In this document: positions 140-1,513 of the stretch, one piece after another
Layout: every line of letters starts with the position of its first letter
How positions within the stretch are numbered: position 1 is the first letter of the stretch
Origin: an archaeon
Lineage (GTDB): Archaea; Iainarchaeota; Iainarchaeia; Iainarchaeales; JAAZKV01
Direction: 5' to 3'
NCBI GenBank assembly: GCA_036170245.1
Contig: JAVHOV010000019.1
Location: forward strand, 1-14,370
Length of the DNA: 14,370 nt
Notes under the pieces: model-generated
What the model was told of the DNA's origin: nothing
The model's input: only the letters and a program-made list of their open reading frames with translations
Database searches by the model: none
Position numbers and translations under genes: made by a program

Positions 140-1513
140 TTACTTCATTAGTAATTCTACTATTCCTGTTCCAACTTTAACTGGTTGACCAACAATTATG
201 TTTTCTACAACTCCAGTTAGGTTTTCTCTTTCTCCCTTGAAAGTGGCTTCTAGTAAGTGCTTTGTTGTTTCTTCAAATGCAGCTCTTGCAAATGGAGATG
301 CTTTTCCTTTTGTAATTCCTGTTCTTACTATTCCCTTTACTTCCCCAGAGAAAGTCATTAGATCGGCGAGTAGCATTATGTGTCTCACATCAACTTTAAT
401 TCCGTTGTCATCCATTACTTTCTTTAGTTCATTAACAATCATAGCTCTTCCTGCTTCAATACCCAATACTTTTGAAGTTTCAATTATATCATTAGTAAAT
501 ACTCTTTCAGCATTTATTCCTTCAAGTTTGAGAACTGATTTTAAGTTACTTCCACTTGTCTTAATGATATATTCGTCGCCTTCTTTTACAACAAGAGTTT
601 TTTCTATTCCTTTTACTCCATGTGCTTTTTCTTCTAGCAACTTTTGAAGTTCTTTTCTAATTTTCAAGTATTCATTCTTCTTTTCAAGTGAAAAGTGAAC
701 TGTGTTGTCTCTGTAAATTGATTTGAAATCTTTTAGACCTTTCTTCAAAACTTCAGCTATATCATCAACTTTCAAAGTCAATGGTTTTATTTTTTCTATC
801 AATATTTCAACAGCAATTTTCATATTTTCAAAATCTTCATTTATTTTTACAACATCAGCGTATCTTACATCAATTAAACTCTTAGCAAATTTTTCTGCTT
901 TATCTTTGTCTTTCTTTAAGTCATTAGTTAAGTATATTGTCATTGTTGGGTACTTAGCTTTACTTCGTCCATCAACAATTTCTTCAACTCTTTGAATTCC
1001 ACTCCCTACTGAAACTTCCGCAGCTCCAGCAAAGTGCTTTGTTCTTAATGTAAGCTGTGTTCCTGGTTCTCCTAAAGATTGTGCAGCAACTATTCCTACT
1101 GCTTCCCCAGGTTCAACTATTATTTGGTTATATTTAATCAAAATAGCATCAGCTAATTTGTCAGTTTGTTCTTTGTTTAATTTGTGAACTTCTGCAATTG
1201 CAACTATTTCTTCCAAAATTCTTTTTGGCAAGATTACTTGTTCCCAGCTTCGTTCTTTTTCTTCATAAACTTTTTCGCTAGGGGCAACTATTGATTCGTC
1301 TTCAACTTCAAGACCTTCATCAATTTCAGCAACTTTTCTTTTCTTTTTAGCGGATTTTACTTCTACAACTTCTGCAGTTTTTTCTTCGTGGGACTCACTA
1401 GTAACTATTTCGTCTTCTACTGCTGCTTCTTCTTCTTCAGTAACGTCTTCTTCATCGTCTTCGTTTTCAACAACTTCTTCTGTTGCTTCTTCTACAAAAT
1501 CTTCGCTAGTCAT
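140..1513 (-). CDS. rpoA2: DNA-directed RNA polymerase subunit A'' (Rpo1C) with acidic N-terminal extension
   Basis: Motifs [26 protein letters not shown]...[28 protein letters not shown] and L.GV.ENII.GQP..VGTG. Start moved from the TTG at 1528 to the ATG at 1513, which follows an SD-like GAAGGTGGGT. Confidence 0.97.

Follow-up and report, generated by a model that had tools for sequence, protein, structure and literature searches.

A lysine fixed beside the trigger-loop histidine of RNA polymerase in an order of Iainarchaeota, with a rewritten link and bridge helix

The window analysed here, a stretch of 14,370 nucleotides from a genome of the Iainarchaeales, carries an intact RNA polymerase (RNAP) operon, encoded on the minus strand in the order rpo5, rpo2 (as two halves), rpo1N and, last, rpo1C, with every frame open. 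The genes rpo5 (RpoH, 79 aa; 7667..7906), the N-terminal half of rpo2 (RpoB'', 487 aa; 6137..7600), its C-terminal half (RpoB', 610 aa; 4257..6089) and rpo1N (RpoA', 876 aa; 1574..4204, present in one copy) were assigned from their open frames and Pfam matches. The last gene, rpo1C (RpoA'', 457 aa with an acidic N-terminal extension; 140..1513), matches PF04998 at E 7.7e-51, and its best solved matches are archaeal Rpo1C chains by both sequence (36rp_C, E 8.7e-90) and fold, Foldseek with the predicted Rpo1C returning Rpo1C as its top matches. Its close named relatives are Iainarchaeota/Diapherotrites MAGs at 56-91% identity. In the genome of the window (867 kb, 86% complete) there is one match each for PF04998 (Rpo1C) and PF04997 (Rpo1N), and 197 of 215 Iainarchaeota genomes have one Rpo1C match per genome; the enzyme is the single RNAP found in this genome and across its order. 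Its single copy and the purifying selection described below suggest that it performs DNA-dependent RNA synthesis. The acidic extension (1244-1513, minus strand) is 40% Asp/Glu over the first 90 aa, and in 120 relatives its length has a median of about 68 aa and a range of 0-115. Upstream of rpo5, also on the minus strand, lie the genes for two Cys-rich repeat proteins with hydrophobic ends, likely both surface proteins, one of 787 aa (8140-10503, no Pfam match) and one of 984 aa (10550-13504, thioredoxin-like and MopE-like matches); a DUF2203 protein is encoded at 13618-14046, again on the minus strand.

The trigger loop region of Rpo1C (yeast Rpb1 about 1074-1106) was placed at 971..1069 on the minus strand by translation and alignment to solved chains. 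The histidine at the position of yeast H1085, invariant in the Rpo1C alignment, is kept (CAC at 1034..1036; gtg on the plus strand), and beside it, at the position of yeast F1084, stands a lysine codon, AAG, at 1037..1039 (plus strand ctt). At the position of yeast P1099 there is a glutamine codon, CAA, at 992..994 (plus strand ttg). A preliminary description of this DNA had reported the same translation and the same two codons, and retranslation matched it exactly; it missed further loop changes, namely Leu at the position of M1079 in the hydrophobic pocket (1052..1054, from the translation), Val at L1101 and Glu at 1102. It had also argued that a single sequencing error was unlikely, given that Phe to Lys demands three base changes. 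The count is correct, and the argument holds up: the lysine is fixed in the order and is written with both of its codons, AAA in 36 and AAG in 33 of 69 GTDB loci. Window-type loop residues are present in 48 of 58 readable loci (61 fetched) and in all of 120 relative proteins among the matches listed, and contigs of 4 runs carry identical letters over 900-2000, all from a single study that may itself be the source of the window DNA. That the lysine reflects a sequencing or assembly error, a pseudogene or a dead second copy has the rarity of the residue as its one argument, against order-wide fixation, the use of both lysine codons, a single gene copy and a constrained loop. Because fixation goes together with the use of AAA and AAG alike, this reading is already refuted, and its chance is practically nil.

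The survey of the phylum took in 215 genomes, 197 of them with an Rpo1C match; the order of the window accounts for 196 species-level genomes. The pattern R-T-K-H-[FY]-A-G matched in 175 genomes, all in this order, and in none of the 19 genomes of other orders. Elsewhere within the order, 16 genomes had no Rpo1C match, 2 were cut at a contig edge before the codon, and 3 that the pattern missed were found on inspection to have lysine, so that Lys stands at the F1084 position in 178 of 178 readable genomes; the other Iainarchaeota orders have Phe in 17 of 17. Second pattern matches in two genomes (G014, G073) and a match in a third (G077) were rejected as chance. In a tree of 106 chosen Rpo1C rows, computed by a quick search under LG+G4 with the loop columns removed, the 35 Lys sequences from the order group as a single clade (SH-aLRT 98) that excludes the Phe orders. 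When the 69 Lys-type loci were compared with the window, 996 of 2277 loop codons differed silently and 89 were changed, in a set of kin that are not independent of one another. The new Lys-type loop is under purifying selection.

The preliminary description had presented TKH and GIQR together. Both are indeed present; the proline loss, in contrast, is phylum-wide and separate from the lysine. Every Iainarchaeota loop read is missing the proline at 1099, Phe-bearing ones included: most of the window's order has Gln there, and the Phe orders have Asp, Ala or His. Three Micrarchaeota loci have Thr, and the Nanobdellota-type Lys enzymes retain Pro. Hence, since Phe-bearing Iainarchaeota and these three Micrarchaeota loci also lack the proline, the two changes were not one event, and, judged from this distribution, the loss of the proline appears to be the older one, shared by the whole phylum.

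The loop is not the only rewritten part of the active site. In rpo1N, the bridge helix (1727..1834, minus strand) is remodelled, with Glu 824 (codon 1802-1804), Lys 832 (codon 1778-1780), Val 833 and Tyr 838; in Rpo2, the link region (5577..5654, minus strand) carries R766K, Y769H and G774F, plus Lys 772. These changes were read against solved archaeal chains, and the yeast numbers come from ungapped matches to the yeast chains. In addition, the first acidic residue at Metal-B (the Glu of the ED pair), in the C-terminal half of Rpo2, is Met in the window. The site varies across Iainarchaeota and Micrarchaeota; relatives have Leu, Met, Gln, Phe, Thr, Ile or Asp there, and Altiarchaeota have Glu. 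Set beside canonical archaeal RNAPs (36rp, 2pmz, 2waq, 36ro, 4qiw), the enzyme has in common the split largest subunit, the operon order rpo5-rpo2-rpo1N-rpo1C, the fold, the NADFDGD catalytic loop (intact at 2864..2884 of the window, minus strand, in rpo1N), and the Gln, Arg and His of the trigger loop. It differs at the bridge helix (Glu 824, Lys 832, Tyr 838), at the link (Lys 766, His 769, Phe 774) and in the loop, where TKH and GIQR replace TFH and GLPR and depart from the T-F-H and G-x-P-R consensus. A likeness is found in other DPANN enzymes, those of Nanoarchaeum equitans, Woesearchaeota and Pacearchaeota, for which radical bridge-helix, trigger-loop and Metal-B changes have been described (PMC8204694). 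The Metal-B Glu is lost in both the Nanoarchaeum-type enzymes and the window, and 832 is altered in both, to Pro in the former (13 of 13 Nanobdellota-type loci) and to Lys in the latter; however, the phylum is another and so are the residues, and the main text of that paper, through its discussion, names no Lys, His or Diapherotrites. Despite its radical active-site changes, the N. equitans RNAP is active in vitro (Nottebaum and Weinzierl 2021, PMC8204694), with a specific activity about 7-fold below that of the Methanocaldococcus jannaschii enzyme in standard buffer, and fluoride stimulates Nanoarchaeum-type RNAP activity. In the M. jannaschii enzyme, large side chains are tolerated at A822 (832), and activity rises with most substitutions of A'' I98 (1102, Glu in the window; PMC2776397).

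Which of these changes travel with the lysine can be read from the sister orders. Glu 824 and Tyr 838 occur in most Phe orders too, and Lys 772 in all five Phe families, of which just one retains Tyr 769. The sites that mark the Lys order are Lys 832 and loop Gly 1095 (21/21 each), Phe 774 (20/21) and Lys 766 (19/21); with a single origin, these may only have been inherited together. Position 769 is never Tyr in any Lys archaeon whose link was read, being His, Gln or Ala in the window's order and Leu, Gly, Ile, Thr or Met in 9 other Lys enzymes. Because Phe-bearing Micrarchaeota and Altiarchaeota are also missing this tyrosine, its loss is not sufficient for lysine. Two other candidate partners were rejected: the link change R766K, as G154, G179 and 8 of 9 outside Lys loci keep Arg, and Gly 399 of Rpo1C, which the order has in common with 12 Nanobdellota-type Lys loci but which Phe-bearing Nanobdellota-type proteins have too. 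Covariation within Rpo1C, over 227 proteins, gave lineage signal only. A single compensating pair, in which the trigger-loop lysine salt-bridges the bridge-helix glutamate that replaced Leu 824, is favoured by Glu (once Asp) in all Lys-type relative loci where both sites were read and by Leu or Val in 10 outgroup loci. Yet Glu coexists with Phe in four families (f34-f37), G154 has Lys with Met 824, and residue 824 is Leu, Gln, Met or Ala in the Lys enzymes of Nanobdellota-type, bacterial and viral origin. Cases of Phe with Glu and of Lys without it largely refute Glu 824 as a required partner, and the pairing is highly improbable as an explanation. Across the alignments, no single partner residue holds over all origins of the lysine.

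Such origins are several. Outside the phylum, a sample of 171 Micrarchaeota genomes (the phylum of one Micrarchaeota-labelled locus, with one unpublished row, G248) gave 82 matches to a first pattern and 68 more to a looser one among 80 re-searched, 9 genomes not being re-searched and 12 having no match; the codon, read by eye, was Phe in 150 of 150 matched loops. In the Altiarchaeota-labelled phylum, 59 of 61 genomes matched, and all 59 have Phe. Cluster representatives, a query-biased set of which 148 of 150 were read, divide into Phe 123, Lys 18, Tyr 6 and His 1. Two Lys-type queries retrieved 227 Nanobdellota-type proteins, 38 with Lys, 189 with Phe and none with any other residue; the labels on the Lys side are Nanoarchaeota, Nanoarchaeia and Parvarchaeota, and those on the Phe side mostly Woesearchaeota. 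A metagenome search with the Lys pattern returned 26 loci, 20 of them Nanobdellota-like, 2 Iainarchaeota-like and 4 of bacterial beta' type, the last probably forming one group. Giant-virus-like contigs contributed 7 Lys loci in open frames of ~1,420 aa, whereas a similar pattern for Phe would match an estimated 700 or so; with a stricter pattern, which did not cover the Leu TTR codons, 3 of 3 non-Phe matches were Lys. The one record examined for Rpb2 in Lys-bearing viral contigs had none, and a search of a phage collection gave no useful match. The 106-row tree requires the site to have switched between Lys and non-Lys at least 9 times, with gains and losses indistinguishable. The taxonomic mapping that the preliminary description proposed thus finds TKH absent from ordinary archaeal RNAPs, fixed in the window's order and recurring elsewhere. 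Its view of TKH as unusual stands for the solved archaeal chains shown and for all Micrarchaeota and Altiarchaeota read, which have Phe; as an oddity of one sequence it does not, TKH being an order-wide fixed trait with recurrences.

Published experiments bear on the site directly. The preliminary description had suggested an F-to-K substitution in yeast and had held that a neutral outcome would tell against its reading. That substitution is already in the source data of Duan 2025 (PMC12391331), where its effect is strong: F1084K alone is ultra-sick/lethal, having been called loss-of-function (LOF) in PMC10069792, and remains so with T834P, T834A, S713P or rpb2 Y769F. Partial rescue, from -6.5 to about -4.7, is given by Q1078S, Q1078A or L1081M, and F1084R is lethal alone and gain-of-function (GOF) with Y769F; both Q1078S/F1084K and Y769F/F1084R are classed GOF. 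According to the authors, F1084, Q1078 and Rpb2 Y769 are close together in the closed loop. P1099Q is LOF; M1079L and L1101V were given no class. Natural haplotypes that include F1084K number six in the sheet for Supplementary Fig. 5c of the same source, three archaeal and three bacterial, with values of about -9.2 to -9.6 throughout. Of the 16 substitutions listed for one of the archaeal haplotypes, the window shares 15, and 21 of 69 relatives share every one. This haplotype is the loop of the window's lineage, its fitness in yeast Pol II is -9.18, and its organism is unstated in a source that tested it just in yeast Pol II. Its lethality does not isolate the lysine, because 16 sites differ from yeast and many archaeal loops are lethal there. 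The parts of the paper's text covered here hold no discussion of F1084K, and F1084 is mentioned neither in the main text of PMC5127505 and PMC11631520 nor in the searched supplements of PMC10069792 and PMC11631520. A wider search, through the texts of largely open-access papers, found no description of TKH, of an Iainarchaeota RNAP or of an assay of such an enzyme. From the bacterial side, F1241A in Thermus aquaticus beta' has a 3-4-fold defect (Yuzenkova et al. 2010, PMC2874521). With so small a cost, the phenylalanine itself is not catalytic; the position is the same and Phe is dispensable in that bacterial enzyme, although an engineered Ala is compared there with a natural Lys here.

The account that we favour, and hold to be somewhat better than an even bet, is that of a working enzyme with an ordinary cycle, in which the link and bridge helix changed first, the lysine was then fitted in, and later changes specific to the order locked it in place. 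Since both F1084K and the lineage's whole loop are lethal in yeast, tolerance of the lysine likely comes from outside the trigger loop, that is, from the rewritten Rpo2 link and bridge helix. The changes at Pro 1099, Tyr 769 and Leu 824 likely came first, being already present in most or all of the Phe-bearing sister orders. By this account, the link and bridge-helix changes would lift packing constraints on the phenylalanine, above all that of Tyr 769; once the enzyme had lost the tyrosine that neighbours F1084 when the loop is closed, there would be room for a long basic side chain, whose amine would point to the NTP triphosphate beside the histidine and link residue 766. This geometry we infer, since the AlphaFold model of Rpo1C leaves the loop disordered (pLDDT <50 at residues 47-80). 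The nucleotide-addition cycle would be an ordinary one with retuned closing of the loop, the tolerance would be spread over several residues with no one partner, and the further order-specific changes would make the lysine hard to lose. There is evidence against this account: Y769F fails to rescue F1084K in yeast, the tyrosine is also lost in enzymes that have Phe, and the several origins share no common partner residue.

A bolder possibility is that the lysine is a second catalytic solution, sharing or replacing the role of the histidine and selected several times. Lysines that bind the triphosphate or protonate pyrophosphate have been proposed for single-subunit polymerases. Here the proposed roles, to which we give a small but real chance, would be to position the triphosphate, to donate a proton to pyrophosphate, or to cleave RNA intrinsically where the cleavage factor TFS is absent. 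The nearly two-state character of the site (Phe 189 and Lys 38 in the Nanobdellota-type proteins; Lys in all three viral non-Phe matches) speaks for such a solution, as do the changes on the tree, each with three base changes, and the two yeast double mutants classed GOF in the source data. However, the histidine is kept beside the lysine (in searches whose patterns required it), Tyr occurs too, in 6 of 148 cluster representatives, and the queries and patterns were Lys-biased. TFS cuts both ways: a 2018 review places it in all archaea except Methanopyrus kandleri (PMC7289017), and two models whose archaeal positive controls worked found it in none of the 215 Iainarchaeota genomes; yet it was equally not found in Phe lineages, that is, the Phe orders of the phylum, Altiarchaeota (0 of 61) and most Micrarchaeota (present in just 9 of 81 searched), so that its loss was rejected as the driver of the lysine. 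On balance, a selected catalytic lysine is unlikely, and doubtful, too, is its analogy-based extension, that 1084 may be a Phe/Lys switch with repeated flips in archaea, bacteria and giant viruses, and the Lys state a second trigger-loop chemistry. Were it true, the Iainarchaeota RNAP would be a natural enzyme for deciding whether the loop histidine catalyses as a general acid or by positioning. Another case, that the lysine is mildly harmful, was fixed by drift in small-genome, slow-growing lineages and became entrenched later, leaving a slower or less accurate enzyme, is consistent with several observations. All labelled archaeal Lys cases are DPANN, the genomes of the window's order are small (0.3-1.5 Mb), other conserved sites (the Metal-B Glu, the link Arg) have drifted as well, F1084K and P1099Q are damaging in the yeast source data, and N. 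equitans RNAP has its reduced specific activity. Drift would nevertheless be expected to leave scattered residues, yet lysine stands in every readable genome of the order and the loop is strongly constrained; moreover, the Micrarchaeota, with equally small genomes, keep Phe in all loops read. This explanation we consider improbable.

About 200 archaeal species, an entire order, have as their wild-type residue, beside a highly conserved catalytic histidine, one whose presence in yeast Pol II is lethal. The order provides a natural, lineage-resolved case of the context dependence inferred from yeast scans, in which the Phe-bearing sister orders serve as intermediates and the residues that changed along with the lysine make a short list; the published haplotype can now be assigned to an organism group, with its bridge helix and link. 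The interest is mainly for specialists in RNAP mechanism. The enzyme belongs to the archaeal RNAP family as an ordinary member whose loop is non-canonical, and active-site rewriting in DPANN has been known in kind since 2021. What is new is the fixation of the lysine in an order, together with the rewritten link and bridge helix, the loop itself being already present, unnamed, in the source data of a published set.

Several minor observations were made along the way. Within the order, one locus (L079, from G154) combines the Lys-type loop TKHRAG with Arg 766 and a bridge helix close to the canonical form, and is a candidate early branch or intermediate. At two further loci (L080 from G006, L083 from G005), not assigned here to that order, the Rpo1N catalytic loop reads NADHDGD, and in their genus the C-terminal part of the trigger loop is without the conserved Arg (GIEIL). 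In family f11 (G051:C17, G053:C25, G054:C2), the Rpo1C match lies inside an open frame of 1262-1269 aa, which suggests a fused Rpo1N-Rpo1C in part of one genus. Beyond the phylum, the bacterial-type beta' loci with RTKH are L118, L123, L125 and L134, and the two that were read have the catalytic loop [AG]ADFDGDAM and a beta link ending in MVGQA. One unnamed protein (P0240) combines TKH with a Micrarchaeota-like loop end, and two proteins labelled Undinarchaeales (P0276, P0277) have Tyr at the F1084 site.
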